DNA of 64,000 bases from an uncultured archaeon (GTDB lineage Archaea; Nanobdellota; Nanobdellia; Pacearchaeales; GW2011-AR1): NCBI GenBank assembly GCA_902385635.1, contig CABMGN010000004.1:21-64020 (forward strand), written 5' to 3'. The translations under genes were made by a program, and so were the position numbers. Positions 1,906-46,847 of this stretch are shown here, piece after piece. The notes under the pieces are model-generated. The model did not search any database and had not been told where the DNA came from. It worked only from the letters and a program-made list of their open reading frames with translations. Each line of letters starts with the position of its first letter. Within the stretch, counting starts at the first letter, position 1.

Positions 1906-1906
1906 A

Positions 1907-2470: not shown

Positions 2471-2518
2471 TCCAGATAAGCCCAAAGGGTTTTTATAAAA
2501 CTTTATTACTACTCAAAA

Positions 2519-3229: not shown

Positions 3230-3230
3230 T

Positions 3231-3575: not shown

Positions 3576-3633
3576 AATAAGACTAGTGTTTAAGAAAGTT
3601 TTTAAGGTTTGTGAATTTAAATTTTCCCGGCGA

Positions 3634-3954: not shown

Positions 3955-3986
3955 AAGAGATGGAGATAAAAACGGTTTATAAAGGT

Positions 3987-7563: not shown

Positions 7564-7600
7564 AAAAAAAGAAGAAAAAAAGAATTATTAAAGGTTTAGT

Positions 7601-7837
7601 TTAATGCTTCTTTTTGCCGATGCTCTGACTTGTTACTGCTATCAGGAAAAGGCTAGAAAAGAAGAGAGGATCATTTTGGGTAAAAAGCCCAAAAATAGCT
7701 GTTATAGCTGCTAAAAAAACTAGTAGTTTAAACCACTTTTCGCCGCCCTTTAATTCCTCTTTTGTAAGCTTTGAAAGTATAATTCCTATTGGAAAACCTA
7801 AAAGTACAACAATAATTGCAACTAAGAGTTGTATCAT
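7601..7837 (-). CDS. small 2-3 TM membrane protein
   Basis: 78-aa hydrophobic ORF filling the gap between dph5 and dtdA. No family recognised. Confidence 0.4.
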   Translation of the reverse strand: MIQLLVAIIVVLLGFPIGIILSKLTKEELKGGEKWFKLLVFLAAITAIFGLFTQNDPLFFSSLFLIAVTSQSIGKKKH

Positions 7838-7870
7838 AATTTATTTAAAACTCCTAATTATTTTAAACCT

Positions 7871-31927: not shown

Positions 31928-32656
31928 ATGATGTTAAGAGGTTTAATTGTAGGAATTGTACTAATTATTGGAATTTCTCTAGTTTTTTCTGCTGTTCCTT
32001 TTCCTCACGGATTTTACGGAACAGTAACTTATTCTAATGGGTCTCTTGTTAATTCTGGAAGCATTGTTACAGAGATGAATAATCTTCCGACAGGGCAAGG
32101 AAGCATAATTAACGGGCAATACAGCTTGGTTGTACAAAGCACAACTAATTTTGGTACAATATATTTTTATTATAATAATGGAACAAATAATTTTCTTACA
32201 ACTATTCCATTTGGGCCTACTGGAAATGTTACCCAGTTGAATTTTAATGTATCTAGCCCAATAGTAACTCCGACCAACATTACAAATATTACCTCAAATA
32301 CAACAGTTACTGGAGATTCTAACGATGATAATGATTGTGAAGATAGCGATCACAAATCTTCTTTTGTAAATATCTGCGAACCAAACTGGGAGTGCGGGGG
32401 TTGGAGTGTATTCACATCCGGAGTTCAAACAAGAAACTGTATTGATACAAATAATTGTGATTACAAGTATAACCAACCAATTGAAGTTGTCGATTGTAAA
32501 AGTTTAGAGAAACAAAAAGTTCTTGTAGAAGAAAAACACAAGATAAATTGGAAAAAACCTTTCCTAGCGTTCAATCTTTTGCTAACATTTATACTCTTAT
32601 TCCTTGTCTTGCTAATAGTTCGTAGAAGAAATCAAGAGAGTGACGACTATTTCTAA
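31928..32656 (+). CDS. surface protein, paralogue of the N-terminal domain of 31120-31926, with TM anchor
   Basis: 'PFPHGFYGTVTYSNG' aligns with 'PYPHAFNGHVNISDG'. Cys-rich segment, C-terminal TM. Start moved to the ATG at 31928, 1 nt after the upstream stop. Confidence 0.65.
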   Translation: MMLRGLIVGIVLIIGISLVFSAVPFPHGFYGTVTYSNGSLVNSGSIVTEMNNLPTGQGSIINGQYSLVVQSTTNFGTIYFYYNNGTNNFLTTIPFGPTGNVTQLNFNVSSPIVTPTNITNITSNTTVTGDSNDDNDCEDSDHKSSFVNICEPNWECGGWSVFTSGVQTRNCIDTNNCDYKYNQPIEVVDCKSLEKQKVLVEEKHKINWKKPFLAFNLLLTFILLFLVLLIVRRRNQESDDYF

Positions 32657-32693
32657 AAAAAATAAAATAATAGAAAAAAAAGACTAACTAAAT

Positions 32694-32825
32694 TTAGTAG
32701 TCGCTATCGGAATCTGATTCCAGATCTTCTGAATCGTCTGAACCCCAGTCGTCAGAGTCGTCTGAACCCCAGTCGTCAGATTCTTCTTCAAAATCTTCTT
32801 CTTTTTTTTGGTTTTTTGTAGCCAT
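32694..32825 (-). CDS. 43-aa hyper-acidic micro-protein with tandem SDDWGSDD repeat
   Basis: Hand translation: MATKNQKKEEDFEEESDDWGSDDSDDWGSDDSEDLESDSDSDY*. Absent from the ORF track because it is under 60 aa. Contains a 23-nt direct repeat with 24-nt (in-frame) period at 32734-32756 and 32758-32780. Confidence 0.35.
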   Translation of the reverse strand: MATKNQKKEEDFEEESDDWGSDDSDDWGSDDSEDLESDSDSDY

Positions 32826-32898
32826 TTTGGTTGTCAAAACCTTATTTAAGTTAAATGTACAACTTTGTCGGTTTTTTAAATCTTTTGAGTCTTGAAAA

Positions 32899-33480
32899 CT
32901 AAGAAAAATATGGGGCTAGATTATAAGCTAGTCCAGTAATTGCTAGTGAAGCAGTTACTGCCAATGCAGCAAGACCTTTCTTCTCCCGAGGGGAAAACTG
33001 CTGAATAACCTGCGGCAAACGTTCGGAAGGTTCAACATTAAAAAAGTCTCTAAACGCGTCTACAGAGTACCCCAGCAACCAACCTGTGGCGCCCATGGCA
33101 GCTACGTTATAAAAAGTATTCCACCCAACATCCTGCTCTCCTCTTGCTCCAGCAATCAAATAAAATGGAACCGTAGTAACAACTCCGTAGGCAAGAGAGT
33201 AAGCAATATCGTGAAACTTCTTAGCTTTTTCTGTAGATTCAGGAGTAATCCCAAACATATTTCGCGAATGCCCCCTTAACCAGGTAAAAAGAGACCCAAA
33301 ACCAGCGTATGTTAATCCAATAGCGAGAAGACGAGAGTTAATTGATGTTTGAGTTGCTAGGGGATGTTGATTAAATTTTTCAACTGCAGCCATAACTGGA
33401 GTTGCAACAGTCATTACTGCTGTTGAATCCACTAAATGTTTCTTCAAATTTATTTCTTTAACGATTGAAACTAATTTCAT
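32899..33480 (-). CDS. AlaE-like (L-alanine exporter family) membrane protein
   Basis: 'DSTAVMTVATPV', 'SRLLAIGLTYAG', 'HDIAYSLAYGVVTTVPFYLIAGA', 'GYSVDAFRDFF' parallel the E. coli AlaE blocks from memory. Visibly higher G+C than its neighbours. Confidence 0.5.
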   Translation of the reverse strand: MKLVSIVKEINLKKHLVDSTAVMTVATPVMAAVEKFNQHPLATQTSINSRLLAIGLTYAGFGSLFTWLRGHSRNMFGITPESTEKAKKFHDIAYSLAYGVVTTVPFYLIAGARGEQDVGWNTFYNVAAMGATGWLLGYSVDAFRDFFNVEPSERLPQVIQQFSPREKKGLAALAVTASLAITGLAYNLAPYFS

Positions 33481-33524
33481 TGTTATTATTCAGAATTAGG
33501 CTTCTGAGGCCGACCACCTCTTGA

Positions 33525-33538
33525 GAGCGCCCCGTCCG
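33525..33538. repeat. att core, distal copy (displaced tRNA-Glu 3' end)
   Basis: 14/14 identical to 42206-42219, and 18/20 when extended to 33519. Confidence 0.65.
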
Positions 33539-33573
33539 CGCCGTTCGGAGTTGTGTAGAGTTTAGATGGGCCT

Positions 33574-33747
33574 TTAAGACAAATTGACCCCGGTTAGAGC
33601 AAGGATTATATCCAATACTGCAAATAGTCCTAAAATAATAAGGGTAGTGCGCCCTAACCACTTCGTGTTAAGATTAAAAAGTTTAGTAAGCCCAAGCATT
33701 AACCCTAGACCCAAAAGAACAATTAATTCCAGTTCAAATATTGGCAT
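33574..33747 (-). CDS. 57-aa two-TM micro-protein
   Basis: Hand translation: MPIFELELIVLLGLGLMLGLTKLFNLNTKWLGRTTLIILGLFAVLDIILALTGVNLS*. Not in the ORF track. Confidence 0.3.
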   Translation of the reverse strand: MPIFELELIVLLGLGLMLGLTKLFNLNTKWLGRTTLIILGLFAVLDIILALTGVNLS

Positions 33748-33788
33748 TTACAAGAAAAGTTTATTTAATATATAAACTTTAACTTTCT

Positions 33789-35246
33789 ATGAACTTAAAA
33801 AGCAACTTCTTATGTAAATGTGGGGGATTATTATATACGGATTTTAAAACAAATAGCGAGTATTGTTTGAACAAGAACTGTGAGAATCATAAAGATATAG
33901 AAAGAATTTATAACAAAAAAGGAGATGTGGAAGAACGATTCAAGAGAATAAAAGAGTCCTTAAGACTTAAATCAAAATTGTTTAGTTCAAACTTTATTAA
34001 TTTCTTATTTGATCAACAAAATTATTTCTTTTCTAAGATTTATGGGGGAGAGGGTGCTCCAATTAATGGGCTGTTAATTATCTGCTATATAATCTTCCTA
34101 GTTAAAGACATTAAATTTGTTGGAAGAGACTCACGACCAAAAAGTTTTATGAACTTTTTAAGATCTCAACATGAACCCTTAAATAATTATTTGTTCTATC
34201 AAGATATAAAAGAAGAGAATATCATCTTAGTAGATTTACCTGGAAGAACGAATGTCCCTTTGAAGTTAAAATATTTAACAGAAATAAATAAACAGAAGAA
34301 TAATTATGGAATGATTAGCGATATTCATTCTGAGACTAACTTTCGATATGACAATATTGACTTAGAAAAAATCGATAAAAAGGTGTTTAAAATAGGTATG
34401 GAATTAGACGAGTATTTCATACAATTCTTCCCAGAAATGATGAAAATTGATATGCTTACAAAGTCAAACCAAGAATTTAGCAAGCTATTTGAAAGAAGGG
34501 GTTTTACTAAATATGAAGTTGGAGCACTATTATCTCTTTTCTTTTCAAGCCCCGTACTTATAGATTTATCTAAAATTAAAAAGAAAGAATTCATAAAAAC
34601 TCTTAAGCAGATGGAGTTTAATGATATTCAAATAGAAAATTTATTTAAATTTTTAATAGGTGATAGTGATCAAATACCTCTAGCAATTGTAACCGATGAA
34701 GAAATTATCTATGGGAAATGGACTAGTTTAGCTATGGTAATGAAGTATTTGGGAACTCTTCCTGAAAGACCATTAATAGTAGAGGGGAAAAGGGTTGCGA
34801 GTAAGGTATTTGAAGGAAAGATAAGAGATATATTAAGAACAAGAGGTTATCTTGTTCCATTTAATCAAGAGATACAACTTCACAAAGATGAAGATGGATA
34901 TGATGTAATCGCAATAGATAAGACAAAAAAGAAAATAAATATAATCGAAGCAAAGTATCGTGATCTGCCTAGTTCAGCATTTTCAGCTTTAAACTTACTT
35001 AATCTGAAAATTTATGGTAAAGAGTTTGGAGAGATCGAAATTGCTAAAAAACAAATTAGTAGAAAAGAACAATTAGAACAGAATAAAGATATTTTAGAAG
35101 CAAAATTATCTAAAGAAGGAATAAAAATAGATCTAAAAGAATATGATATTGTCCCTTATGTAGTTTTCAAATTTAGCCCAATCTTATCTCAATTTGAAAT
35201 AGTTAAATTAATCTCGTTTGATGACGTCTCAAATATTAATTTTTAA
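33789..35246 (+). CDS. Zn-ribbon / unknown middle region / C-terminal PD-(D/E)xK (Mrr_cat- or NERD/Shedu-like) nuclease
   Basis: N-terminal 'CKCGG...C..KNC'. C-terminal 'FEGKIRDILRTRGYLV...EDGYDVIAID....INIIEAKY' fits the D...(D/E)xK nuclease core. Confidence 0.6.
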   Translation: MNLKSNFLCKCGGLLYTDFKTNSEYCLNKNCENHKDIERIYNKKGDVEERFKRIKESLRLKSKLFSSNFINFLFDQQNYFFSKIYGGEGAPINGLLIICYIIFLVKDIKFVGRDSRPKSFMNFLRSQHEPLNNYLFYQDIKEENIILVDLPGRTNVPLKLKYLTEINKQKNNYGMISDIHSETNFRYDNIDLEKIDKKVFKIGMELDEYFIQFFPEMMKIDMLTKSNQEFSKLFERRGFTKYEVGALLSLFFSSPVLIDLSKIKKKEFIKTLKQMEFNDIQIENLFKFLIGDSDQIPLAIVTDEEIIYGKWTSLAMVMKYLGTLPERPLIVEGKRVASKVFEGKIRDILRTRGYLVPFNQEIQLHKDEDGYDVIAIDKTKKKINIIEAKYRDLPSSAFSALNLLNLKIYGKEFGEIEIAKKQISRKEQLEQNKDILEAKLSKEGIKIDLKEYDIVPYVVFKFSPILSQFEIVKLISFDDVSNINF

Positions 35247-35490
35247 TTTCCTTAACCAACTCTTCACCTTTCTTAGTTCTTCTATAAAGCCTATACCTTT
35301 TCTCTTCTGGGTTTAAGCATTCAATTAACTTCCGATCAATTAAAGAAATAATTATATTGCTTATGTAACCTAGGTTAAGATTTAGTTCAGCTGATAGCTG
35401 AGTTGGTGTCTTTGGTTCAGACAAAGCAAGAAAAACCCCTTTTCTATGTTTGCTACGAATTACGAAGCTGTAATCTCCCCAGTTTTTCAT
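35236..35490 (-). CDS. small winged-helix (ArsR/MarR-like) regulator
   Basis: 'RKGVFLALSEPKTPTQLSAELNLNLGYISNIIISLIDRKLIE...YRLYRRTKKGEE' shows an HTH plus wing. Confidence 0.7.
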   Translation of the reverse strand: MKNWGDYSFVIRSKHRKGVFLALSEPKTPTQLSAELNLNLGYISNIIISLIDRKLIECLNPEEKRYRLYRRTKKGEELVKEIKN

Positions 35491-35549
35491 GTATAGAAAT
35501 GTTTATAAAATATTTAATACTTAGACGAGTATTACACGAGCTATTAAAA

Positions 35550-35987
35550 ATGACAAAGGAAGGGCATAAACATGAGAAGAAAAGTGCTTGGTTTTATGTA
35601 GCGATTATCGTTGGAATGTTACTAGTTTTTGCTTTAATTCTGGCTTTTATAAATCCAAGTTCTAGTACTGAAACAAAGTCTAAGGAAACCTACATCTATA
35701 ATTATACTCAGACTAACTCTGATACTGGGAGTCAAACACAAACTGTAAGCTCAAGCAAGGTTCTTATAAACGGGGCGTATGATGTTAAAACAGTCAGTCA
35801 ACCAGGACAGAGCATATACCTAATAGTTAATGGGGTTAGCGAGCAAATAACAGTATCCAAAGACACCCTGGTTTCTCAACTTGACTTAAATGGTATGCAT
35901 AATATAGTTAACTTATGTCAGGGAGTTCATTCTCCACAGGTTAATCAAAACGGAGTAGATAATAATGTAAATTATCTAATCTGCTAA
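35550..35987 (+). CDS. membrane-anchored S/T-rich protein
   Basis: TM helix 'WFYVAIIVGMLLVFALILAF', then an extracytoplasmic domain. Start moved to the ATG at 35550, because the longer ORF overlaps the divergent regulator. Confidence 0.5.
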   Translation: MTKEGHKHEKKSAWFYVAIIVGMLLVFALILAFINPSSSTETKSKETYIYNYTQTNSDTGSQTQTVSSSKVLINGAYDVKTVSQPGQSIYLIVNGVSEQITVSKDTLVSQLDLNGMHNIVNLCQGVHSPQVNQNGVDNNVNYLIC

Positions 35988-36058
35988 AGTTCTTTATAAA
36001 AATTGACCCGCTCTTTTGAGAAAATAATCTTTTAAATAGACACCTTGATTTTATATAC

Positions 36059-37468
36059 CTAACACCCTCTTCGAAAGTTATGTTTGTCCTTGTGTCTAAC
36101 ATAAACATTTATTATTAAAAAAATTCCTGACAAGATTAGAGAGATTATAATAATTAAATAGAATAAATTGAATCTTAAGGGGATTGGTAATGTAATCAAG
36201 ATCCCAAATATAGATATTAAGCTTATTTCTAGATACTTCATAAATTGTTCTCTTCCATACCTTAAAATTAGACAAAAATATATTAGAGAAAGTAAAATAA
36301 AAGAGATGAAAATTAATTGATAAACAAAGGGCCTATCAAATAATAGTCTTATTTCTTTAAGATCTTCAACTTCATCCAAAGAGCCGTAATAAACTATCCC
36401 CTCGGGATCCCCATTTGGGCTAGTACTTGAGCGAACTGTTCTTAATGGATAAGTAATGATATTAAGAGTGAATCCTTTATTATTCACTCCATTTTTTATA
36501 ATTAAGTCATGAGTATTATTAGTTGAGAGAAAAATCTTACTAGTAAGGTCTTCCGACTTTTTCTGGTTAAAACTAAAACCTCTTGGCTCAGTTATAAAAA
36601 AAGATATCTTAGCATATCTAACTAATTCGCTTTTTTCTGAGGAGTATAACAAAGAAACTGATTCTGGGAAGAAGATCTTGTTAGATTTTACTTCATCAAA
36701 TGGAAATCGAAAAGGGCGAATATCTATTGTTTTTTCTAATGCATAATCTATTTTTATATGGTGCTTAGTGTTATTTTGTAACTTTATAAAAAGGGTGGTT
36801 CCATTTGAATAATCTAAGGTGGTTGTACATGATTCTTTATTATCCGTACAATCAAAGACGTGAAGGAAATTAAGGTCCGTTCCTTCTAAGGGGTAAGACA
36901 GAGACATTTGGGTTACCTCTGGAGATAAAATGATATCAATTTCATCGGTTATTTTCAAAGGAAAATCAAAGTTTAATGTCCTTTTCCAGTCTAATACATG
37001 ATAATTTAAAGAAGTGGCAGTCCAATTCAGAGAAAATATTGGAGAAGGTTCGATATAACTCCCAGGGATATCAAGGAAAAAAGAGTAGTTCATACTCTCT
37101 TCCTCATTCTTAACACTCCAAGAGATATTGTTTATATCCGCTTGTGAACTTAGATTAAATTGAATACTCTTTCGTTGGGATCGATTATTCTGATTTATAA
37201 TCCAGAGGGTTACATCCTCCAAAGATTCATTTTTACAAGAATTTGCCAAGTTTGCTGATAGATCTACATAATCCCCCCTAATGTAGTTATAAACAGATTC
37301 TTGATTAACTCCCAGTGAAGGGCAAGCATTAAACGATCCATAGATAGAACAGTTGTAAGGAAGAGTGATGTTGATGTTTGTGATAGCTAGTGCTTCAATT
37401 ACAGAAATAGCAAAAGAAAGGGTTAATAACGGTATAATTATGAATAATAAAGGTTTATATTTTCCCAT
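36059..37468 (-). CDS. glycoprotein-like envelope/surface protein (signal peptide, many N-x-S/T sequons, 3 C-terminal TMs)
   Basis: 469 aa. 'LLFIIIPLLTLSFAISVIEA' signal. More than 12 sequons (NIT, NCS, NRS, NLS, NIS, NYS, NWT, NGT, NNT...). Hydrophobic C-terminus. Confidence 0.6.
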   Translation of the reverse strand: MGKYKPLLFIIIPLLTLSFAISVIEALAITNINITLPYNCSIYGSFNACPSLGVNQESVYNYIRGDYVDLSANLANSCKNESLEDVTLWIINQNNRSQRKSIQFNLSSQADINNISWSVKNEEESMNYSFFLDIPGSYIEPSPIFSLNWTATSLNYHVLDWKRTLNFDFPLKITDEIDIILSPEVTQMSLSYPLEGTDLNFLHVFDCTDNKESCTTTLDYSNGTTLFIKLQNNTKHHIKIDYALEKTIDIRPFRFPFDEVKSNKIFFPESVSLLYSSEKSELVRYAKISFFITEPRGFSFNQKKSEDLTSKIFLSTNNTHDLIIKNGVNNKGFTLNIITYPLRTVRSSTSPNGDPEGIVYYGSLDEVEDLKEIRLLFDRPFVYQLIFISFILLSLIYFCLILRYGREQFMKYLEISLISIFGILITLPIPLRFNLFYLIIIISLILSGIFLIINVYVRHKDKHNFRRGC

Positions 37469-37589
37469 ATTTTTTTGAGGGATTACTAATTAATAAGTAT
37501 TACTCTTTCTAGAAACATCTTCCCCTAATCGCATATTAATATATTTGTGTATTTACGTAATCATGTACTCTCGTATTCACAGATTGCCT

Positions 37590-37850
37590 TAATGACGTAG
37601 TGAAGTAATGAAGTAATGCAGTGTTTAAGACTTGAAGCTTTTAAGTATTGAAGATTTAAAGCTTTTGAGTAAATTCTTTGTAATTGAGTAATCTTGAAGA
37701 AAATGAGCAAAATAAGCAGTTTAAGAGAATTAAGTACTTTTAACAGATTAAACAGTTTTACTGAATTTACTGAATCTAGTAAAGAGGGTAAAGATAGTAA
37801 AAGTAGTAAAATAAGTAGATCAAGTGCATTAAGAGGTTCAAGATTTTCAG
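37590..37850. repeat. C-depleted tract of degenerate short tandem/dispersed repeats
   Basis: GAAGTAAT x2, TTGAAG x3, AGCTTTT x2, TTACTGAAT x2 in tandem, AGTAAA x3. About 17 C in 240 nt by hand count on the plus strand. Confidence 0.5.
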
Positions 37851-37851
37851 C

Positions 37852-38253
37852 TTATTTAGCTTTACTTACTTTTCTCACTTTCTTTAGATAAATGTCTAAG
37901 AATGGCAAACGCCTGTCAACCGGTGTTTGTTTTCCTGCCTTAACTTCTTCCCAGGAATCCTTTCGGACTCTAAATTTACCATTTTTCAGCCTTTCTAGAT
38001 AACTTCGCTTAACTAGGTCTTCACAAGCCCTTTTGTAGTTTGAATAGCTGGCACTTACGTAAGCCCTGGCTATTTCCATGTAAGTTGAAGGTCTATTACT
38101 GTTCTTTATAAAAAAAGCAAGCACAGATATCTCAGTTTTAGACCAGAGTGTATGCTCTTTGATTACAATTTTGCGATCGTCTCTCTTAAACGGGACTTTC
38201 AGAAGTTTCTCAAATTCCTTTTGACTAATCTCTTCTTGGTCTTCCATTTGCAA
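37852..38253 (-). CDS. wHTH-like DNA-binding protein
   Basis: 'STYMEIARAYVSASYSNYKRACEDLVKRSYLERLKNGKFRV' looks like an HTH plus wing. 133 aa. Confidence 0.45.
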   Translation of the reverse strand: MQMEDQEEISQKEFEKLLKVPFKRDDRKIVIKEHTLWSKTEISVLAFFIKNSNRPSTYMEIARAYVSASYSNYKRACEDLVKRSYLERLKNGKFRVRKDSWEEVKAGKQTPVDRRLPFLDIYLKKVRKVSKAK

Positions 38254-38398
38254 TTATCTCAATTTATTTGCACGCCCGCTTAAATAGTTTTTCACTTTTT
38301 CTCTGTTATGAAAACAATTGAAGAAAAACTTGAAGCGTTACAGGTAATGCTTGAACGCCTTGAATTAAAAGTACATAGGAAAATAATGGAGAGAGAAC

Positions 38399-38575
38399 AT
38401 GAAAAAGAACTCCCACTTACACATTCTAATTGAAACAAATCTACTAACAAAACTAAAAGAAGAAGCTCAAAAGAGGAATCTTTCACTAGGGCAATTTTGC
38501 AGGTTAAAACTAAAAAAACAAGACCAATTAGACAGAATTGAAACAAAAGTAGATAAGATTTTGAAAAAGACCTAA
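38399..38575 (+). CDS. ribbon-helix-helix (CopG/Arc-like) protein, 58 aa
   Basis: Hand translation: MKKNSHLHILIETNLLTKLKEEAQKRNLSLGQFCRLKLKKQDQLDRIETKVDKILKKT*. Beta-strand then two helices is the RHH pattern. Not in the ORF track. Confidence 0.5.
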   Translation: MKKNSHLHILIETNLLTKLKEEAQKRNLSLGQFCRLKLKKQDQLDRIETKVDKILKKT

Positions 38576-38576
38576 C

Positions 38577-39149
38577 TTATATTTTAGATACTATTTCATT
38601 CCAAGAGTAAATTAGCATAATTGTTTTATAAAATCCATATAAGAAAAGAATAAACCCGGGTTGGGATAAAAAATAAACAGTAAGATCTTGCAAAATTAAT
38701 GGGTTCGGGGTAAAGATCAAATCCCCGAGTAGAAGGAATATACTTATTAGAAAAGAAGCTATGATTCTAAATAATATCTTTTTAAGATTTATCTGTTCAT
38801 GAAAGATAGTCAAATTATCGGATTCTTCTCTAATCTTGCCGATTTCATCAGAAACTGAATTATAATCATTCTCGCTATAGTTATTTATTTTTTTTAAAGA
38901 TTCTGAAACATTTGCTACAAATTTTGTCCTGTAAGAAACTATTAACTTTTCCTTACTTTCTTTTATCCTTTTTTGAATAACCAGAGGGTAAAAGATTGCT
39001 ACAAATGCTAATAAGGATACATCCAGAGACAAGATTGCATAATAGTTATTTCTGATACTTGAAGTATACGCCAAAGAGATAACACCAAATAGTAAAAAAA
39101 GAATAGGCATCCAATCTTTTAATTTAAGAAAAAATTCTTTTCTTTCCAT
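38577..39149 (-). CDS. membrane protein (4 TM with central soluble loop)
   Basis: 190-aa clean ORF, 1 nt downstream of the preceding gene in the integrase operon. Confidence 0.5.
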   Translation of the reverse strand: MERKEFFLKLKDWMPILFLLFGVISLAYTSSIRNNYYAILSLDVSLLAFVAIFYPLVIQKRIKESKEKLIVSYRTKFVANVSESLKKINNYSENDYNSVSDEIGKIREESDNLTIFHEQINLKKILFRIIASFLISIFLLLGDLIFTPNPLILQDLTVYFLSQPGFILFLYGFYKTIMLIYSWNEIVSKI

Positions 39150-39150
39150 T

Positions 39151-39528
39151 TTAGTTTTTACCTGACTTTTTATCTTTTTTTTTAGAAGATATTAGCCAGA
39201 TAAACCAGCATATTAAAGATAAAACAGAAAGGATTAATATAACCCAAGCAAAAGTTACAACCCCGATAAGACCGCTTTTTTCTAAAACTATAAGAATAAT
39301 ACTTATTGCTAAAAAAATCCAAGAAATCCAACTACCAAAGTTTTGTGCAACGCCATTTTTTAGTTCCACACCATTAATTATAATTGCTATAGAAAACAAA
39401 GGTAAAACCCAAGGTTCTATCGTTTCAGAAGCAAGATCTAGAAAAGTACGAATAATTGTCTCTGCTAGAATAAATCCTCCAATAATTATTAATAATTCCC
39501 CTATCGTTTTTTTGTCGATACCTTCCAT
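39151..39528 (-). CDS. membrane protein (4 TM, basic tail)
   Basis: 125-aa hydrophobic ORF ending 'KKKDKKSGKN'. Confidence 0.5.
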   Translation of the reverse strand: MEGIDKKTIGELLIIIGGFILAETIIRTFLDLASETIEPWVLPLFSIAIIINGVELKNGVAQNFGSWISWIFLAISIILIVLEKSGLIGVVTFAWVILILSVLSLICWFIWLISSKKKDKKSGKN

Positions 39529-39582
39529 AAAAGGTCGAATAATGAAATGCTTTTAAAGTTTTCTAGGCTAGTTAATAGAATT

Positions 39583-39729
39583 CTAACTTTTACAATATTT
39601 AAAAAATTCTTTCAAAAAATAAAACATTCCTTCTCCAAATTCAGTCAAGTCTTTATTCCTTTTTAGCTTTTTGCAGTCTTCATAATCTTCTCTTAATTGT
39701 TTAGCAAGTCGTTCTGGAATTTTCATCAT
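39583..39729 (-). CDS. 48-aa ORF translationally coupled to the integrase
   Basis: ATGATGA overlap with the integrase stop. Hand translation: MMKIPERLAKQLREDYEDCKKLKRNKDLTEFGEGMFYFLKEFFKYCKS*. Confidence 0.3.
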   Translation of the reverse strand: MMKIPERLAKQLREDYEDCKKLKRNKDLTEFGEGMFYFLKEFFKYCKS

Positions 39730-40883
39730 AACTTCTCAATAACTTGATCTAAACGAATGAGAGTCTCCATAAACCTATCAACTTTCTCTTCTATAGCTTT
39801 CATTCTATCATCAAGAATCTGTTTATCTCTACTACTCTGTTGGAGATTCTTCTCAAGCTCCGTCTTTTCTTCAGCAAGAACAAGATCATCTTGAGTAATT
39901 GTGTCTTTCATTCCTAATAATTCTGAATAATAATGAATTTTATCTGATTTTTTCCAACCAAATCTATACTTCAATGCCGACTCTGATTTGTAACGGGGAA
40001 GCCAATAACAGCAAGAACAATGCCTAAAATCGTACATTGTGAGCTCGGAGTACTTTTCTCCAGCCAAACTTACTTTATCCCCTAAAACTCTTTCTGCTAG
40101 TCTTTGCAGGTATTTGTTAACTGTGGCTGGCTTTATTGAAAACAAATAGTCCTCTTGGCTAAGTTCCTTTTCTAGGACATATTCCTTAATATGTTGAAAG
40201 CAAAGCATTAGCTTTATCTTTCTCCCAAAAGTTTTACTTATTTCTTCCCGGATCATTAGCTCCTTAAAATCTCCATAGAAATCTGAAACCTTAACATTCA
40301 CTAGTTCCGTTGGAGACCTAATTCCCGTATCAAATAAAAACATGATTAAAACCTTATAGTCCCATCTCGCCTTATTACATAACTTTTTTATTTGCTCTTC
40401 TGTCAAGTAAACCCAGTGGGGCTTTTCTCCTCTCGAGTCTAAATCAGTAGCAATGTCGGGGATTTCCTTTCCTTGTTTCTTGTTTACTATCTGCCACCAA
40501 TGCCAAAATGCTTTGATAATTTTTACAAAATAATTAACTGATTGGTACATTTTGCCATCATTTCTTGCAATTTCTCCCTTCCTCATTTTTGAAAAGAAGA
40601 GAACAAGCTGATTTTCAGTTATTTCAGTTATGTCATCAAGATTATAAATTTCTTTGAACTTTTTTGCAAAAAAATACATTTTTTCTCTAAGTGTGTTAAG
40701 CCGAATAAAGCTTCTACATCCCTTAACACTTTTTTGAGAGACATTTAAGCCATGTTCCATATCAGTTACATACCTGAGAATTAAGTCAGAATTTTTCTTT
40801 GAGATATTTGGAACTCCTTCAATTAGAACTTTTTCTTTCCATTTTTTATATTTCTCTTCATGGTTATAGGGGTCTATCTTCAT
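39726..40883 (-). CDS. int: tyrosine recombinase / integrase
   Basis: Box I 'DTGIRSPTEL', box II 'DFRHCSCCYW', and the C-terminal Tyr region 'KIHYYSELL'. Confidence 0.85.
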   Translation of the reverse strand: MKIDPYNHEEKYKKWKEKVLIEGVPNISKKNSDLILRYVTDMEHGLNVSQKSVKGCRSFIRLNTLREKMYFFAKKFKEIYNLDDITEITENQLVLFFSKMRKGEIARNDGKMYQSVNYFVKIIKAFWHWWQIVNKKQGKEIPDIATDLDSRGEKPHWVYLTEEQIKKLCNKARWDYKVLIMFLFDTGIRSPTELVNVKVSDFYGDFKELMIREEISKTFGRKIKLMLCFQHIKEYVLEKELSQEDYLFSIKPATVNKYLQRLAERVLGDKVSLAGEKYSELTMYDFRHCSCCYWLPRYKSESALKYRFGWKKSDKIHYYSELLGMKDTITQDDLVLAEEKTELEKNLQQSSRDKQILDDRMKAIEEKVDRFMETLIRLDQVIEKL

Positions 40884-40988
40884 GAAAGATAAAATTAAAT
40901 CTTATTTAAAAGAAACCACAACAACTGTTGAACATGTTGCTAAGTTGAGTATAAAAATGTTTAAATTCGAAGAAAATCTTTATCATAT

Positions 40989-41756
40989 ATGGATATCAGT
41001 CAAGCAATAGTTAGTTTTAAGCAAGAAGTTCGAAATTTCTCTGAAGATATACTTGGAGTTGGAAAATATGCGACTCCAATTTATAGATCTGCAGAAAAGA
41101 TTATCCACTTCATAGATAATCCCTCTCAAAAATTAGAAGAAATATTCACAAAATTGAAAGAAGAGTGTCTTAATTATGATACTGCTCAAGACTTTTTTGG
41201 AGGTAAAGAAGAAAAAGGATTATATCACTATGCGGAGTTACTTCTTATAGAAGTAGATAAAATTAGATTCAACAAAGATCAGACATTTTCAAAAAAAGAA
41301 AACAAGTATCATTTAAGAGAAGATAAAAAAATATTTATAATTCATGGAAGAAGAACTGATCTAGCAGATGAATTGCACAGAATCTTGAATGAACATAAGT
41401 TAAATTCCGTTATTTTACAATATATACCAAATACTGGAAGAACAATCATAGAAAAACTTGAAGAAGATGGTTTTAATTCTTCAGACTATGCTATAGCAAT
41501 TATGACCCCTGATGATTCTGGAGGATTAATTAACTCAAAAAAAGATTCGCCAAGAGCTAGACAGAACGTTATTCTAGAGATTGGGGCATTTGTAATGAAA
41601 GATCGTAAGAGATTATGTATACTAAAAAATGGTGAAGTAGAGTTGCCTTCGGATTTATCTGGAGTTTTATATCTAGAATTTGACAAAAAAATAGAAGAAA
41701 TTTCAAGGGCTATTCTTAGGGAATTGTCCAAGTCGGGTTTTAACATTTCTTTTTAG
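40989..41756 (+). CDS. TIR-like (Cap12/PycTIR-type, COG4271-like) domain protein with novel ~105-aa N-terminal domain
   Basis: 'KIFIIHGRR...AIAIMTPDD.....ARQNVILEIGAF....R.CIL....ELPSDLSG' matches the prokaryotic TIR-like effector signature, including the conserved Glu. Confidence 0.7.
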   Translation: MDISQAIVSFKQEVRNFSEDILGVGKYATPIYRSAEKIIHFIDNPSQKLEEIFTKLKEECLNYDTAQDFFGGKEEKGLYHYAELLLIEVDKIRFNKDQTFSKKENKYHLREDKKIFIIHGRRTDLADELHRILNEHKLNSVILQYIPNTGRTIIEKLEEDGFNSSDYAIAIMTPDDSGGLINSKKDSPRARQNVILEIGAFVMKDRKRLCILKNGEVELPSDLSGVLYLEFDKKIEEISRAILRELSKSGFNISF

Positions 41757-42136
41757 AATAAGATATTTACTATTGCAGAAATCGCCAAAATAGCAGTTAA
41801 AATAACCAACCAAAGTTGTAATAAGTCAACTCTCTTTTTTTCTCTAACCTCTCTCGATTGTTTCTCCAGTTCTAATGCTATATTGAATCCTTTTTCAGTT
41901 AAATCAACCCAGTCACTATACTCTTTATAACTCTGTATATTCAGTCTGGTAAGTTTATTATCTTCTAAAAAGGAAATGGACTCTCCCAATTCATGACCCT
42001 TAATCCTAAGTCTCTTTGCAAGATCATGTTGGTCATCCCAGTAACTCATCTTTCCCGAAGAGCAATACTTACCTGGGGCATGTCTATAAATTTCCAGTAA
42101 CACCTTCTTCCAAGTATTAGGTTTTCTAATCTCCAT
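41753..42136 (-). CDS. wHTH-like protein with C-terminal TM helix
   Basis: 127 aa. 'LAKRLRIKGHELGESISFLEDNKL' HTH-like segment. C-terminal 'LWLVILTAILAISAIVNILF'. Confidence 0.45.
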   Translation of the reverse strand: MEIRKPNTWKKVLLEIYRHAPGKYCSSGKMSYWDDQHDLAKRLRIKGHELGESISFLEDNKLTRLNIQSYKEYSDWVDLTEKGFNIALELEKQSREVREKKRVDLLQLWLVILTAILAISAIVNILF

Positions 42137-42205
42137 AATTTTCTTAGAAAAAACCTATTTTTAACGATTTATATAAAAAGCCCACACAAACTAGACAAGT
42201 CTTTC

Positions 42206-42219
42206 GAGCGCCCCGTCCG
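42206..42219. repeat. att core, tRNA-proximal copy
   Basis: Identical to 33525-33538. Covers the discriminator plus the 3' acceptor strand of tRNA-Glu and 3 nt beyond. Confidence 0.65.
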
Positions 42220-42281
42220 GGATTCGAACCCGGGTTACTGCCTTGAAAGGGAAGTGTACTTGGCCTCTGTACTAACGGGGC
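42209..42281 (-). tRNA. tRNA-Glu(UUC)
   Basis: Acceptor GCCCCGT/ACGGGGC, anticodon arm CTTCC-CTTTCAA-GGCAG (one U-C mismatch), T-arm CCGGG-TTCGAAT-CCCGG. 73 nt. Confidence 0.85.
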
Positions 42282-42421
42282 TTATTTCTCCAGAAAAGTG
42301 AATTTCCCGAAGATAAAAAGTTGAACTAAAGTTCACTTATAAAGTTTTTGAATTTTTGAGTAAAGGGAGGAAGAGTCGAGTTTTACAAAAGAAATAAAAA
42401 GGCTCTTTTTTTAGTGATTTA

Positions 42422-43381
42422 ATGGGAAAAGTGCCCCCAGAGCAAAAAATAAATGATCTCATCTTCAAGGAGCTTCTTAAGAGAGGTTATTCTCTAGACG
42501 GAAAGACAAGGGTATGGAACATTGCTGATTCTAAATTATGGTATTTAACTCCAGAACAGGCTCAGGCATTTCTAGATCTTGAAGGATCAAAAGAATATCA
42601 TAAGGATGTTATACAAAAGGAAATAGATCTTATCAATGATAGTATGACAAAGATTCTAGAAAAAATAAAGAATGAACCTCTGAATGTTATTGATCTTGGA
42701 TGTGGAGACGGAAAGAAAGCAGCTCTTTTCATTGGGAAACTGAAGAATACCGGACTGGTAAGATACTGCCCGATCGATATAAGTTCGTATATGGTAGAGA
42801 AAGCTGTTGATAAAATCAATAAATTAGGTGTTGGAGAAGTTGTAGAGTTTCAGTGGAATATTTCGGATTTTGAAAACATGGGGAACATTACCTCACTATT
42901 AAGACACGGGAAGTTCAAGAATAATCTAATTCTTTTACTTGGAAATACTCTAGGAAACTTTGAAATTCACGAATTACTTTACGGAATTAGAAGCTCTATG
43001 AAAGATGGAGACTTGCTTTTGATTGGAAACGGATTAAACAGCGAAGATCCTAAAATGATTCTAAAAGCATATGATAATAAGTTACTAGATAACCTTCTGT
43101 TTAAGACTCTTGACCAGATTGGATTCAAAAAAGAGAATATAAAATACGGAGCAAGGTTTGTTAATTCTAGAGTAGAAATGTACTATACAATTATGAATGA
43201 TTTTGAAATTTCATTCTTAGGTAAAAAGATACAGTTTCAGAGAGGAGATCAGATAATTGTTGCACTTTCATACAAATACAATCAGTATGATTTTAGAAGT
43301 TTCTTGAATATGTACTTTAGTGAAGTAGATCTTTTTGCAACAAAAGACTCTGCTTATGCTCTTGCTCTTTGTAAGAAGTAA
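42422..43381 (+). CDS. class I SAM-dependent methyltransferase (EgtD/Methyltransf_33-like)
   Basis: Motif I 'VIDLGCGDGKK', then 'YCPIDIS'. Confidence 0.65.
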   Translation: MGKVPPEQKINDLIFKELLKRGYSLDGKTRVWNIADSKLWYLTPEQAQAFLDLEGSKEYHKDVIQKEIDLINDSMTKILEKIKNEPLNVIDLGCGDGKKAALFIGKLKNTGLVRYCPIDISSYMVEKAVDKINKLGVGEVVEFQWNISDFENMGNITSLLRHGKFKNNLILLLGNTLGNFEIHELLYGIRSSMKDGDLLLIGNGLNSEDPKMILKAYDNKLLDNLLFKTLDQIGFKKENIKYGARFVNSRVEMYYTIMNDFEISFLGKKIQFQRGDQIIVALSYKYNQYDFRSFLNMYFSEVDLFATKDSAYALALCKK

Positions 43382-43398
43382 TTCTTTGTTAAAATTTA

Positions 43399-43521
43399 TG
43401 AGCCTACACGGATTTGAACCGTGGACCCCCGCCTCTCTTAGACTTTTTCTATGAGATCAGCAATCCTGATGGAATGCAGTCCTATAAGAGCGGTGCTCTA
43501 ACCAGGCTGAGCTATAGGCTC
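43399..43521 (-). tRNA. tRNA-Ile(UAU) with a 48-nt canonical (37/38) intron at 43435-43482
   Basis: Exons fold to a 75-nt cloverleaf (acceptor GAGCCTA/TAGGCTC, T-arm CACGG-TTCAAAT-CCGTG). The junction forms a textbook bulge-helix-bulge: CCGCU/GGCGG stem, 3-nt bulge AGA, 4-bp CUUA/UAAG, 3-nt bulge UAG, GAC/GUC. Confidence 0.75.
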
Positions 43522-43582
43522 ACTAATTTAACACAAACTTCACATCGATAATATATTTAAAGGTTTTTCCACACCCGAGTAT

Positions 43583-44767
43583 ATGTTATTAGGTCTTGTT
43601 GGGAAGCCTTCTGTAGGAAAATCAACTTTTTTTAAAGCAGCAACTTTAGCAGAAGTAGAGATAGCATCCTACCCATTTACAACCATAAAAGCCAATCACG
43701 GTGTAGCTTACGTGAAAATAGACTGTATTGATAAGGAATTTAACACGCAGTGTATGCCTAAACACGGTTTCTGTATAAATCATAAGAGATTTGTACCAAT
43801 AGACCTAATGGATGTTGCCGGGCTTGTTAAAGGTGCCTCGGAAGGAAAGGGTTTAGGGAATCAATTTCTAGATGACTTAAGAGAAGCAGATGTTTTTATT
43901 CAAATTGTGGATGCTTCGGGAACAACAGATGAGGGTGGAAAAGAAACGAAAGGCCACGATCCGTGCGAAGATGTTGAAATGTTAACAGAAGAGTTAGATA
44001 AGTGGTATCATAATATTCTAATGAAGGTTTGGAAGACTTTTGCAAGAAAAGTTGAGTTAGAAGATCAGAATCTTGCCGAAGCTGTTGCTAAACAGTTTTC
44101 TGGGCTCAAGGTTAAAGATTACCAAGTAAAAAAAGTTTTATTAAAAGTAAATTTTCCAGGAAAACCAAGTATGTGGACAGAAGATCAGACATTCAAGTTC
44201 GCTTCGGAGTTAAGAAAAGAGAGTAAACCTATGATTATTGCTGCGAATAAGGTTGATATTGAAGAAGGGAAAGCAAATGTTGAAAAATTGAAAAAGAAAT
44301 TTTCTGAATACATGATAATTCCGTGCTCTGCTGATGCGGAGTTAGCATTGAGACAGGCAGCAAAGGCTGGAATGATTGATTATATCCCTGGAGAGAAAAC
44401 ATTCACAATAAAAAAAGAGTTGAATGAAAAACAAAAAGAAGCTCTTGAAAAAATTAGAAAGAATGTTCTAGAAGTTTATGAGTTCGGGACAGGTGTCCAG
44501 GAAGTTTTGAATGCTGCGGTTTTTGATTTGTTAAAGTATATTGCTATTTTTCCGGCCGGAGCAACAAAGCTTGCAGACAGCAAGGGAAATATCCTTCCAG
44601 ATTGTTTTTTGATGCCTCCGGGAAGCACTACTCTAGACTTCGCTTACGCTTTACATACTGATTTTGGAAAGAATTTCATTAAGGCAATTAATGCAAGAAC
44701 AAAGATGGCTCACGGAAAAGACTATTTGTTAAAGCACAGAGATGCATTTGAGATTGCTACACGATGA
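43583..44767 (+). CDS. Obg-like GTPase/ATPase (YchF/Ygr210-type) with C-terminal TGS domain
   Basis: G1 'GKPSVGKST', G3 'DVAGLV', G4 'NKVD'. C-terminal TGS-like 'TTLDFAYALHTDFG'. Confidence 0.85.
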   Translation: MLLGLVGKPSVGKSTFFKAATLAEVEIASYPFTTIKANHGVAYVKIDCIDKEFNTQCMPKHGFCINHKRFVPIDLMDVAGLVKGASEGKGLGNQFLDDLREADVFIQIVDASGTTDEGGKETKGHDPCEDVEMLTEELDKWYHNILMKVWKTFARKVELEDQNLAEAVAKQFSGLKVKDYQVKKVLLKVNFPGKPSMWTEDQTFKFASELRKESKPMIIAANKVDIEEGKANVEKLKKKFSEYMIIPCSADAELALRQAAKAGMIDYIPGEKTFTIKKELNEKQKEALEKIRKNVLEVYEFGTGVQEVLNAAVFDLLKYIAIFPAGATKLADSKGNILPDCFLMPPGSTTLDFAYALHTDFGKNFIKAINARTKMAHGKDYLLKHRDAFEIATR

Positions 44768-45768
44768 GGTTCAATAGAAAAATGAGCAAAGTATATTTTT
44801 CAGAGGACTTGGATAAAATTCTAGAAACAATTGATTACTCTAAACTTGGAAAGAATGTTGCAATCAAAGTTCATTTTGGAGAAAAGGGATGTACAACATA
44901 TTTAGATCCAGAAATAGCTAAAAAAGTATACGAGAAAATTATTAGTCTAGGAAAAAAAGCAGCGCTTGTAGACTGTAATGTTTTATACAAGGGATCTAGA
45001 ACAAATACTACAGACCATATAAAAACTGCAAAAGAACACGGATTTGGTTTTGCTCCAATCGATATTCTCGACGGAGAGTTAGGAGAGGAATTCATCGAAG
45101 TTAATGGGTGCAAGATTGGGGCTGGAATAAAAAAGTACGATTCTATGATTGTTCTCACTCATTTTAAAGGGCACGGAGAAACCGGCTATGGGGGAGCGTT
45201 CAAGAATATCGGGATGGGTTTAGGAAGTCGTGCTGGAAAACTGCAAATGCACGGGGATCTAAAATTATCAGTGATAAAAGAGAAATGTATTGGGTGTGGA
45301 GTTTGTAAAGCACACTGTAATTACGGAGCAATAGAGATTATTAATGGAAAAGCAGAAATAAACCAAGAGAAGTGCGTTGGATGCTCTATGTGTGTTGCGG
45401 TATGTGAGCAAAGGGCAGTTAACCTCCCGTGGGCCGAGGTAGCCAGTGAAAAAGTACAGAAGAGAATTATAGACTATGCTGAAAGTGTTTTGCGATTAGT
45501 CCCGAATCAGATTTTTATAAGCGTTTTAAAAAATATAACTCCCGAATGTGACTGTTGGGATATTGTGCAAAAACCAGTAATGGCAGATATTGGATTTTTG
45601 TACTCTGAAGATATTGTTTCTATAGATAAGGCAAGTTTATATTTAGCAAATAAAAAGTCAGAAGGAAATTTTGATAAGATAAATTCTGTGAATAAAAATA
45701 TTCAAGTTGATTATGCTTATGAAAAAAAGCTTGGAGAGAAAGAGTACGAATTAATTGAATTAAAATGA
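44764..45768 (+). CDS. DUF362 domain protein with 2x[4Fe-4S] ferredoxin insert
   Basis: 'CIGCGVCKAHC' and 'CVGCSMCVAVC'. ATGA overlap with the upstream stop; alternative start at 44782. Confidence 0.7.
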   Translation: MRFNRKMSKVYFSEDLDKILETIDYSKLGKNVAIKVHFGEKGCTTYLDPEIAKKVYEKIISLGKKAALVDCNVLYKGSRTNTTDHIKTAKEHGFGFAPIDILDGELGEEFIEVNGCKIGAGIKKYDSMIVLTHFKGHGETGYGGAFKNIGMGLGSRAGKLQMHGDLKLSVIKEKCIGCGVCKAHCNYGAIEIINGKAEINQEKCVGCSMCVAVCEQRAVNLPWAEVASEKVQKRIIDYAESVLRLVPNQIFISVLKNITPECDCWDIVQKPVMADIGFLYSEDIVSIDKASLYLANKKSEGNFDKINSVNKNIQVDYAYEKKLGEKEYELIELK

Positions 45769-45971: not shown

Positions 45972-46348
45972 AAGTTCTATCATTAAAACAGCCCTTTGCA
46001 GAGCTAGTTGTTCAGGGAAAAAAGACAATTGAATTAAGAAAATGGAATACAAAATTTAGAGGAGAATTTTTAATCCATGCCTCAAAAGTTCCAGACAAGA
46101 AATCAATGGAGAGGTTTGGATTCAAAGATCTTCCTTTAGGAGCAATTGTTGGAAAAGCGAAATTAGTTGAGGTTAAAGAGTATAAAAGTGAAGAAGAACA
46201 TAGGAAAGACAGAGATAAACATCTGGCTTCTGATTTTTGGGGAAATTATGGTTTTGTTTTAGAAAATGCACAAAGAATAAAGCCAATTCCCGCAAGAGGA
46301 AACTTAAATTTTTGGGAATTTAAATATGACACGGACAGAGAATCTTAA
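45968..46348 (+). CDS. ASCH (PUA-like) domain protein
   Basis: 'LSLKQPFAELVVQGKKTIELR'. Confidence 0.65.
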   Translation: MKVLSLKQPFAELVVQGKKTIELRKWNTKFRGEFLIHASKVPDKKSMERFGFKDLPLGAIVGKAKLVEVKEYKSEEEHRKDRDKHLASDFWGNYGFVLENAQRIKPIPARGNLNFWEFKYDTDRES

Positions 46349-46847
46349 AGTCAAGTTTGGTTAATTTTTCTAGGGACTTTCGCATATCTGAAGGATTAGA
46401 TCCAGGAATATCTGTTCTACCGATAATACCTCTGTGAAATAAAGTATCCCCAGAAAATAAAATCTTTTCTTTTGGGAACCACAAACAAACCCCGCCTTTA
46501 GAATGCCCGGGAGTTTCTATTAAAACCACTCCAGGAAGATTTAGTTCTTTAATGTCTAAAATATTCTCCTTTCTTGAAAAATCTTTATCGCTTCCGTATA
46601 TTTTTGCGTTTTTAAAAAGAGAGATGTTTCCTACATGATCAAAATGGCCATGAGTTAGAATAACTAAATCGATTTTTTCTGCAGGAGTTTTTAATTCTTC
46701 TAAAGACTTCTTTAGTTCAAGAAAATTCCACTTAGCCCCTGTATCAACCAGTATATTTTTCTTTTTGTATTTGAAAAGATAGACACAACTACCAAACAAA
46801 GAAAAGTCTATCTGCCAAAGATTCTCTGCTAATTTGTGAATTGTCAT
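46320..46847 (-). CDS. MBL-fold metallo-hydrolase
   Basis: 'ILTHGHFDHVGN' (HxHxDH). Confidence 0.85.
   Translation of the reverse strand: MTIHKLAENLWQIDFSLFGSCVYLFKYKKKNILVDTGAKWNFLELKKSLEELKTPAEKIDLVILTHGHFDHVGNISLFKNAKIYGSDKDFSRKENILDIKELNLPGVVLIETPGHSKGGVCLWFPKEKILFSGDTLFHRGIIGRTDIPGSNPSDMRKSLEKLTKLDFKILCPCHI

Follow-up and report, generated by a model that had tools for sequence, protein, structure and literature searches.

The locus described here raises the question of how a TIR-like protein of the type known from CBASS and Pycsar defence could serve an archaeon, or the mobile element that carries it, as a single gene. It lies in a stretch of 64,000 nucleotides (nt) from an uncultured archaeon of the Pacearchaeales (contig CABMGN010000004.1, positions 21 to 64,020; hereafter the window), in which the gene at 40989-41756 encodes a helical N-terminal domain followed by a TIR domain. 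Our analysis shows that this gene belongs to the catalogued PADLOC candidate family PDC-S35 and stands alone; it is a divergent addition to that family and not a new kind of system. By analogy with better-known TIR effectors, we consider it rather probable that the product is a self-contained, single-gene defence protein, an NAD+ hydrolase (NADase) that acts by abortive infection. The gene and its parts are as follows.

40989-41756 (+): gene for the TIR-like protein, 255 amino acids (aa), a member of PADLOC candidate PDC-S35
40989-41276 (+): N-terminal four-helix bundle, aa 1-96 in the AlphaFold 2 (AF2) model, a putative sensor or regulatory domain
41328-41687 (+): Cap12/PycTIR-type TIR domain, aa 114-233 by Pfam, with the fold reaching to about aa 250
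41577-41579 (+): GAG codon of Glu197, the predicted catalytic Glu (within RARQNVILE), invariant in 106 family members

A first-pass annotation, made from the letters of the window, had assigned the C-terminal part of the protein to the Cap12/PycTIR type with a conserved Glu, and our searches bear this out. The match to PF10137 (CAP12-PCTIR_TIR; STIR clan) is far above chance (E 6.7e-32; 110.4 bits against a cut-off of 24.7) and covers the whole profile (1-119 of 119); the generic TIR_2 model of Pfam matched below its threshold. The open reading frames (ORFs) of this gene and of a neighbouring 127-aa gene were located as described, and so were the motifs quoted for them, with IFIIHGR at aa 115-121, AIAIMTPDD at aa 168-176, ARQNVILEIGAF at aa 190-201, including Glu197, and LPSDLSG at aa 219-225; the start codon is backed by the same MDIS..AIV N-terminus in the homologue P0002. 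In an alignment of 106 family sequences, all 18 invariant and 19 near-invariant columns are kept in the window protein, and the motif R-x-N-V-[IV]-x-E-x-G is present as RARQNVILEIG, in which the Glu is E197. Searched against the PDB, a profile built from 15 family members retrieved Cap12 (9lmq, 1.3e-10; 7un8, 2.5e-9) and PycTIR (8jsj, 3.6e-7), and aligned E197 with the Glu of the Cap12 sequence RDNVVFEFG (motif NVVFEFG), which we take, from the TIR-STING literature, to be the catalytic residue. The AF2 model of the whole protein, built on a 106-sequence alignment, has a mean predicted local distance difference test (pLDDT) score of 85.6, and of about 90 in the TIR domain, and shows an alpha/beta, flavodoxin-like TIR fold C-terminal to the four-helix bundle and a linker. 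Its best Foldseek matches in the PDB were the TIR domains of SfSTING/TIR-STING (7un8_A, E 1.2e-4, root-mean-square deviation 2.7 Å over 138 columns; also 9lmq), followed by SARM1, the TIR-APAZ protein of SPARTA and classical TIRs. Directly read TATA-like boxes ahead of the gene (TATAAAAA at 40950-40957 and TTTAAAT at 40960-40966, about 26-35 nt before the ATG) would fit an archaeal transcript that has a short leader or none.

The same annotation had suggested an undescribed system, and here it has to be revised because the whole protein matches a catalogued candidate. All five PDC-S35 hidden Markov models (HMMs) of PADLOC match it, with E values from 4.2e-46 to 3.4e-38 and the best over aa 33-254; these matches are much stronger than those to the CBASS-effector TIR and PycTIR models of PADLOC, which span the TIR only (for PycTIR, 4.7e-8, confined to aa 110-240). 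The PDC set comprises predictions made by 'guilt-by-embedding' (Payne et al., bioRxiv 10.1101/2024.01.29.577857), most of which are unvalidated (PMC12988326), and we found no publication that names PDC-S35. Our homology search collected 695 relatives; nearly all are 250-300 aa long and carry PF10137 in their C-terminal part, and public records often annotate them as 'predicted nucleotide-binding protein'. A scan of species-representative genomes placed encoding loci in at least 582 species, from many bacterial phyla together with Bathyarchaeota, Altiarchaeales and Nitrososphaeria; the match-containing ORF could be identified in 79 of the best 80 loci, where it is mostly 240-310 aa long with the TIR at the C-terminus. 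Relatives also occur on 1,148 plasmid records (chiefly of Klebsiella, Escherichia and Salmonella), in four phage genomes and on 53 IMG/VR contigs. One plasmid-borne homolog deserves a separate remark: on an IncF plasmid of Salmonella (NZ_CP018634.1, 3268-4447; locus L221), a gene for a 299-aa protein, WP_000963205.1, abuts pifC and a P-loop NTPase gene, with which it is convergent, and is preceded by an overlapping 96-aa ORF; a small upstream ORF with a 4-nt overlap was seen at several other family loci too. Judged by position, the plasmid locus may presumably be the pif phage-exclusion operon of the F plasmid, with the NTPase as PifA.

The genomic contexts of the family point in the direction of defence, and they also bear on whether the protein needs a partner. 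The commonest immediate neighbours of the relatives are six ResIII proteins, four N6_N4 methylases (type III Mod by PADLOC) and four type I S subunits, and in some loci the gene is embedded in a restriction-modification (RM) operon, in the order HsdM-HsdS-[TIR]-HsdR at L068, L072 and L073 and Mod-[TIR]-Res at L077. Further neighbours include a NERD-UvrD helicase (at a Bathyarchaeota locus), minimal nucleotidyltransferases and integrases, and no conserved neighbour gene was found in the 79 loci, which represent 79 other genomes. This RM embedding, the carriage on plasmids and (pro)viruses and the defence-type cargo of sister elements, described below, support a defence role. The earlier statement that the gene has no cyclase, CD-NTase or ThsA partner also stands, in that none was found in the window tally or beside the relatives in the 79 genomes: cyclase and CD-NTase families were absent from the 81 immediate neighbours of relatives and from the top 25 of the 38 PADLOC families matched by window ORFs of at least 150 aa. 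It might be argued that the protein is nevertheless a signal-dependent effector of the CBASS, Pycsar or Thoeris kind whose cyclase or other signal generator has its gene in another part of the genome, since its TIR subtype is that of Cap12 and PycTIR, the order of an N-terminal sensor and a C-terminal TIR is that of PycTIR, and just 64 kb of the genome is in view. We regard this as highly improbable: besides the missing cyclase and CD-NTase neighbours, the N-terminal domain is an all-alpha four-helix bundle and not a cyclic-nucleotide-binding domain (CNBD), STING or SAVED, the NCBIfam Cap12 equivalogs, whose cut-off is 450 bits, reach 28 and 27 bits, in the TIR region only, and the small mobile element brought the gene in without such a partner.

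A different objection is that the gene is not antiviral at all, and would instead encode an element-stabilising toxin (for addiction or to exclude competing elements) or an enzyme for another nucleotide or nucleoside substrate, or be an unexpressed passenger. The TIR fold is related to nucleoside 2-deoxyribosyltransferases and DNPH1-type hydrolases, and DNPH1 and other flavodoxin-like folds do appear among the weaker-scoring Foldseek matches of the TIR model; moreover, the gene adjoins the integrase of a small element without recognizable viral genes, the public annotation says merely 'nucleotide-binding protein', and we found no published experiments on the family. Against these points, the recurrent embedding in RM operons and the nearness to Abi and other defence genes are typical of defence genes, the catalytic-site residues common to NADase TIRs are all conserved, and there is no antitoxin-like conserved partner. 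On balance, we judge a non-antiviral role to be unlikely, and a defence NADase remains our preferred explanation.

The N-terminal domain was claimed to be novel, and this claim stands at the level of sequence but not of fold or layout. AF2 predicts helices at aa 3-19, 29-41, 47-66 and 75-93 (pLDDT about 75-95), followed by a disordered linker at aa 97-113 (pLDDT below 50 at aa 97-109) that leads into the TIR; modelled separately, the domain again forms a confident helical structure, an up-down four-helix bundle (pLDDT 78, predicted template modelling score 0.73). Foldseek on this separate model returned only generic bundles (PsbQ, cytochrome b562 and FAT domains; best E 0.12), so the proposed AlphaFold and Foldseek check did yield a fold but no informative neighbour. 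An exhaustive phmmer search of aa 1-105 against 1.84e9 representative sequences found the protein's own cluster only, plus one short match to a 3,603-aa protein that we judged spurious. Comparison by BLAST of the N-regions of 106 family members gave one large cluster (61 of the 106) and many small ones, with the window protein grouped with P0002 alone, and hhalign of this pair against 13 other N-domain clusters gave a probability below 1% in each case. A known ligand-binding domain was thus sought by phmmer, hhalign and Foldseek, and rejected as none of the three gave an informative relative; by these sequence comparisons, the domain appears to be an orphan with one detectable relative. Three of the five PDC-S35 HMM alignments do run from aa 29-43 to aa 254, i.e. 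into the N-domain, although the similarity detected by BLAST, phmmer and hhalign stops at P0002. The two proteins are 53% identical overall, with 37% in the N-domain and 67% in the TIR half, and any two members of the family share, on average, 17% identical residues in the N-region and 57% in the TIR. A variable helical N-domain before the TIR is the normal architecture of the family, and a hypervariable region beside a conserved TIR is the pattern that would be expected of a specificity or sensor module.

On the reading that we favour, and by analogy with Cap12 and PycTIR, the TIR would hydrolyse NAD+ only after oligomerization, the monomer being inactive. The N-terminal bundle would substitute for a cyclic-nucleotide-binding domain and keep the TIR off; it would sense a cue of infection directly, such as a viral protein or an altered state of the cell, and then release or nucleate TIR assembly, and the resulting collapse of NAD+ would abort the infection and thereby protect the element and the host population. 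Two published observations are in keeping with this scheme: standalone TIRs have been regarded as probable effectors of NAD+ depletion (10.64898/2025.12.03.692087), and compact candidates that consist of a single gene are overrepresented in DPANN genomes (PMC12988326). The part of the scheme that makes the bundle a direct sensor is more tentative, and we would put it at appreciably less than an even chance. Several considerations weigh against the reading as a whole. We infer NADase activity, oligomerization and the sensing role of the N-domain; that domain is, as modelled, a generic four-helix bundle without an informative structural neighbour; the association of the family with defence is by context only, with about 10% of relatives directly inside RM operons and the remainder in mixed contexts; the search for partner genes in the own genome covered the 64-kb window; we found no published functional test of members of this exact architecture; and there is no known virus of the host archaeon.

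The carrier of the gene is well delimited, and its main features are listed here.

33445-42208 (no strand): integrated element of 8.76 kb with about 12 ORFs, integrase and cargo; low GC (about 0.30; flanks about 0.35)
33525-33538 (no strand): core of the left attachment (att) site, attL, GAGCGCCCCGTCCG, a displaced 3' fragment of the tRNA gene, at the break of synteny with the related locus L083
42206-42219 (no strand): attR core, GAGCGCCCCGTCCG, overlapping the 3' end of the tRNA-Glu gene
42208-42281 (-): tRNA-Glu(UUC) gene, the integration target, found by ARAGORN and Rfam
39726-40883 (-): tyrosine-recombinase integrase, 385 aa (NCBIfam XerA_Arch, 9.3e-14; PHROG_1, 8.4e-18)

The element is recently integrated, and the TIR gene is cargo between its tRNA-Glu att site and the integrase, as the first-pass annotation had held in placing the gene on a mobile element. 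The two att cores form an exact 14-bp direct repeat, two copies of which occurred in 0 of 100 shuffled sequences; it was found by a k-mer comparison seeded on the tRNA, and a general repeat search had missed it. A relative, L083, provides the empty site: its positions 869-1638 correspond to window 32656-33444 and 1769-4382 to window 42209-44770, with YchF 89% identical, and between the two syntenic blocks it holds just 130 bp and the orthologous tRNA-Glu gene (L083 1768-1842), which identifies window 33445-42208 as an insertion. The closest named relatives of the host's YchF, at about 75% identity, come from Candidatus Pacearchaeota and Nanoarchaeota; the host is therefore a Pacearchaeota-like DPANN archaeon, in agreement with the earlier description of a reduced archaeon. 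Among the proteins of the element, none except the integrase matched a phage family (PHROG), and an Rfam scan of a GC-rich stretch beside attL detected no RNA family. At the attL end, the gene at 33789-35246 (+) encodes 485 aa with a sub-threshold DUF234 match (E 0.0011) and no PADLOC or PHROG match; of the element's cargo genes that lack an explanation, it is the largest.

The integrase and TIR genes are divergent and separated by a 105-bp spacer, to which the following feature belongs.

40917-40940 (-): conserved integrase-promoter motif, CAACATGTTCAACAGTTGTTGTGG in the direction of the integrase gene; both palindromes discussed below fall within it, and a TATA-like box (about 40903-40911) comes just after it

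Palindromes had been noted in this divergent promoter region, and the sequences are indeed present: AACAACTGTT at 40920-40929 is an imperfect palindrome (AACA-AC-TGTT) and AACATGTT lies at 40931-40938, although singly neither is above chance (4 observed against 1.46 expected, and 13 against 7.35). What does not hold is their interpretation as a TIR-specific operator. The integrase has 471 metagenomic relatives, and among the best 80 of these (loci L088-L167; 59-77% identical), L089-L095 have CAACATGTTCAAnnnnTGTTGTGG and a TATA box at positions -55 to -33 relative to the integrase ATG, irrespective of the cargo; in more distant integrase relatives another palindrome, GTACATGTAC, occupies this spot. 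Because the motif is kept upstream of integrases with other cargo, we regard it as part of the element's backbone, belonging to the promoter or operator of the integrase gene. A scan for sigma-70 promoters and terminators, a bacterial model applied to an archaeal host, gave results at the level of shuffled sequence.

The integrase relatives also show what else can occupy the place of the TIR gene, which itself occurs in none of the 80 loci. The tRNA targets of the integrase family are those for Asp, Glu, Ser and Gly, and in 15 of the 18 loci with a detected tRNA, a same-strand upstream tRNA lies 77-331 bp from the integrase start, so that the slot between them is empty. The slot holds cargo of 1.1-2.7 kb in L093, L095 and L097, and of 1.3 kb in the window (the TIR and 127-aa genes). 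Beside the integrase lie an ATPase-TOPRIM protein of the OLD family in L089 (50-1489; AAA_15 8.8e-30, OLD-like_TOPRIM 1.5e-13), an EVE-HNH endonuclease in L094 (3-746) and a MauJ-like protein in L097, and in L098 (5203-5898) a Hypoth_Ymh protein (9e-19), of a family that we take to belong to the HEPN superfamily, is divergent from the integrase. At the thresholds used, Pfam and PADLOC gave no matches for the cargo of L093, L095 and L096 other than TM2 and DUF2116 (L095) and a cyclodipeptide synthase (L096); a 168-aa protein of L093 may have an Rx4H motif of the HEPN type. The slot is thus variably filled, often with genes of defence type, and to judge from these annotations the sister elements suggest a hotspot for defence cargo. 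Backbone genes are common to the window and its relatives as well, namely the 58-aa ribbon-helix-helix-like ORF at 38399-38575, in 17 loci, and two winged helix-turn-helix (wHTH) ORFs, at 37852-38253 in 3 loci and at 35236-35490 in 1 locus.

The second gene in the slot had been paired with the TIR gene in the first-pass annotation, and it is here that the view of the TIR gene as a lone gene can be examined against its immediate surroundings.

41753-42136 (-): gene for the 127-aa protein, an independent cargo or backbone gene, with a C-terminal transmembrane (TM) helix at about 41756-41827 and a possible wHTH
42173-42198 (+): non-coding block of 26 nt, identical at 24 of 26 positions to L001 2078-2103; also at L002 2575-2600

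The proposal was that the TIR protein and the convergent 127-aa wHTH-TM protein form a two-gene module; the latter might be a membrane-tethered regulator or sensor, or antisense control could arise where the 3' ends overlap. The ORFs do overlap by 4 nt at their stops (TAG at 41754-41756 on the plus strand, TAA at 41753-41755 on the minus strand), an arrangement that would permit transcriptional interference; both genes lie within the att-to-integrase slot, and the 127-aa ORF has a TATA-like box to itself, TTTATATAAA, read directly at 42168-42177. The neighbourhood survey, however, did not find the 127-aa gene kept beside TIR homologs. A search of 5.8e9 proteins found no homolog of the 127-aa protein beyond the self match, and tblastn against related elements found a single one, at L093 488-982 (E 2.5e-29, 46% identity). 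This homolog adjoins tRNA-Asp, with genes for unrelated membrane proteins after it, and its element has no TIR gene. Conversely, at the loci of the closest TIR homolog (L001 and L002, 53% identity) there is no 127-aa gene; genes for a DUF5678 protein and an aspartyl-protease-like protein stand downstream, and a 181-aa protein, weakly AbiU2-like, is encoded upstream on the opposite strand. We conclude from these two facts that the 127-aa gene is very probably not a partner of the TIR gene; none of the 79 other family loci has a conserved neighbour, and the two genes, being convergent, do not form one operon. The 26-nt block adds to this, as it follows directly after the TIR stop in L001 but lies beyond the 127-aa gene, just inside attR, in the window, which suggests that the cassette gained or lost the 127-aa gene independently. 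Taken together, the evidence leaves a functional pair very unlikely. As for the protein itself, the C-terminal hydrophobic helix is evident from its sequence, the wHTH label derives from sub-threshold matches alone (MntR, E 0.057; WH_III-A, E 0.022), and a PDB profile search with a two-sequence alignment gave no match. The core of the 26-nt block, GCCCACNCAAACTAGACAA, was found among 220 loci only in the window and in L001/L002. The block may mark the edge of the cassette, or serve as a terminator or arm site. On the L001 and L002 contigs, a search for a tRNA-Lys att repeat was negative.

Outside the element, some observations on the surrounding chromosome may be recorded. A second indel separates the window (44771-45764) from L083 (4383-6956), where the former has a gene for a 334-aa 4Fe-4S-type protein and the latter a methyltransferase gene, an OTCase-family gene (OTCace_N/OTCace) and an adenylate kinase gene. 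Between the methyltransferase and YchF genes, at 43399-43521 (-), a fifth tRNA, 123 nt long, was detected by Rfam (54.5 bits) but not by ARAGORN; it is probably an intron-containing archaeal tRNA. The chromosomal gene at 46320-46847 (-) encodes a 175-aa protein of metallo-beta-lactamase fold, whose L083 orthologue (7515-8042) has a weak match to Anti-Pycsar_Apyc1; it is conserved in L083, which lacks the element, and is therefore probably unrelated to the TIR gene. The PADLOC tally for window ORFs of at least 150 aa includes two MADS 'mad3' matches (best E 7e-55), one mad8 match and matches of the SMC/ABC-ATPase type (LmuB, AriA, JetC), and a methylation-associated or RM-like system may thus be present elsewhere in the window.

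What is new in this locus is modest: an orphan variant of the N-domain, a cleanly delimited integrative element of a DPANN archaeon that carries it, and evidence for interchangeable, defence-type cargo in the att-to-integrase slot of this element family. CRISPR and RM systems are scarce in DPANN archaea, and single-gene candidates are thought to dominate their immunity (PMC12988326). If the function proposed here is correct, the gene would clearly exemplify a small TIR NADase that works without a partner and is carried by a mobile element in such an archaeon; its family, of candidate status, spans hundreds of species and more than 1,000 enterobacterial plasmids. The contrast between the conserved TIR and the hypervariable N-domain leads to a directly testable hypothesis on the sensing of infection, and the defined element, with its att sites, empty site and 471 integrase relatives, offers a tractable system for the movement of defence cargo among genome-reduced archaea. 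We may go further and speculate that the hypervariable bundle recognizes a specific factor of a virus or rival element and licenses TIR filaments, and that tRNA-integrating elements of DPANN archaea are dedicated shuttles trading TIR, OLD, EVE-HNH and HEPN genes in the att-to-integrase slot. This combined proposal is possible but doubtful; were it true, it would describe a one-protein 'sense-and-kill' NADase with swappable sensors, and a route to immunity for genome-reduced symbionts.

Compared with known systems, the protein is closest to the other members of PDC-S35, with which it shares the match to whole-protein HMMs, the status of a single gene for about 250-300 aa, the C-terminal PF10137 domain and relatives within type I and type III RM operons; it differs from them in an N-bundle, common to the window protein and P0002, without significant similarity to their N-domains by BLAST and hhalign, and in a DPANN host and carriage on an integrative element. 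PycTIR (PDB 8jsj) has the same PF10137 subtype, the same order of a regulatory N-domain and a C-terminal TIR, and the conserved Glu motif. In PycTIR, the N-terminal domain is a CNBD, and filament formation driven by its ligand activates the protein (PMC11224242). Activation by oligomerization is likely, by analogy, to be a logic that the two proteins have in common; however, PycTIR works with its CNBD and an adjacent pyrimidine cyclase gene, whereas the window protein has a four-helix bundle, with no match to a Pfam model for cyclic nucleotide monophosphate binding at E≤1, and the window tally contains no cyclase. The Cap12/TIR-STING proteins (SfSTING; 7un8, 9lmq) give the best match to the TIR in both structure and sequence, with the Glu aligned, but they consist of an N-terminal TIR and a C-terminal STING and work with a CD-NTase, and the window protein has neither arrangement nor partner. 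From ThsB of Thoeris it differs in having no PF08937 match at E≤1 and no ThsA among the neighbours of its gene. As the defining ligand-binding domains and partner genes are absent, the window protein is not Cap12, PycTIR or ThsB. The setting of the gene invites a further comparison, because bacterial integrative elements and P2/P4-like prophages have hotspots of defence cargo near the integrase and att site. The case described here differs in that the carrier is a small tRNA-integrating element of DPANN-type archaea whose slot is empty in most relatives; the likeness lies in the slot between integrase and att site, which holds the TIR gene in the window and genes of the OLD family, EVE-HNH and Ymh/HEPN types in sister elements.

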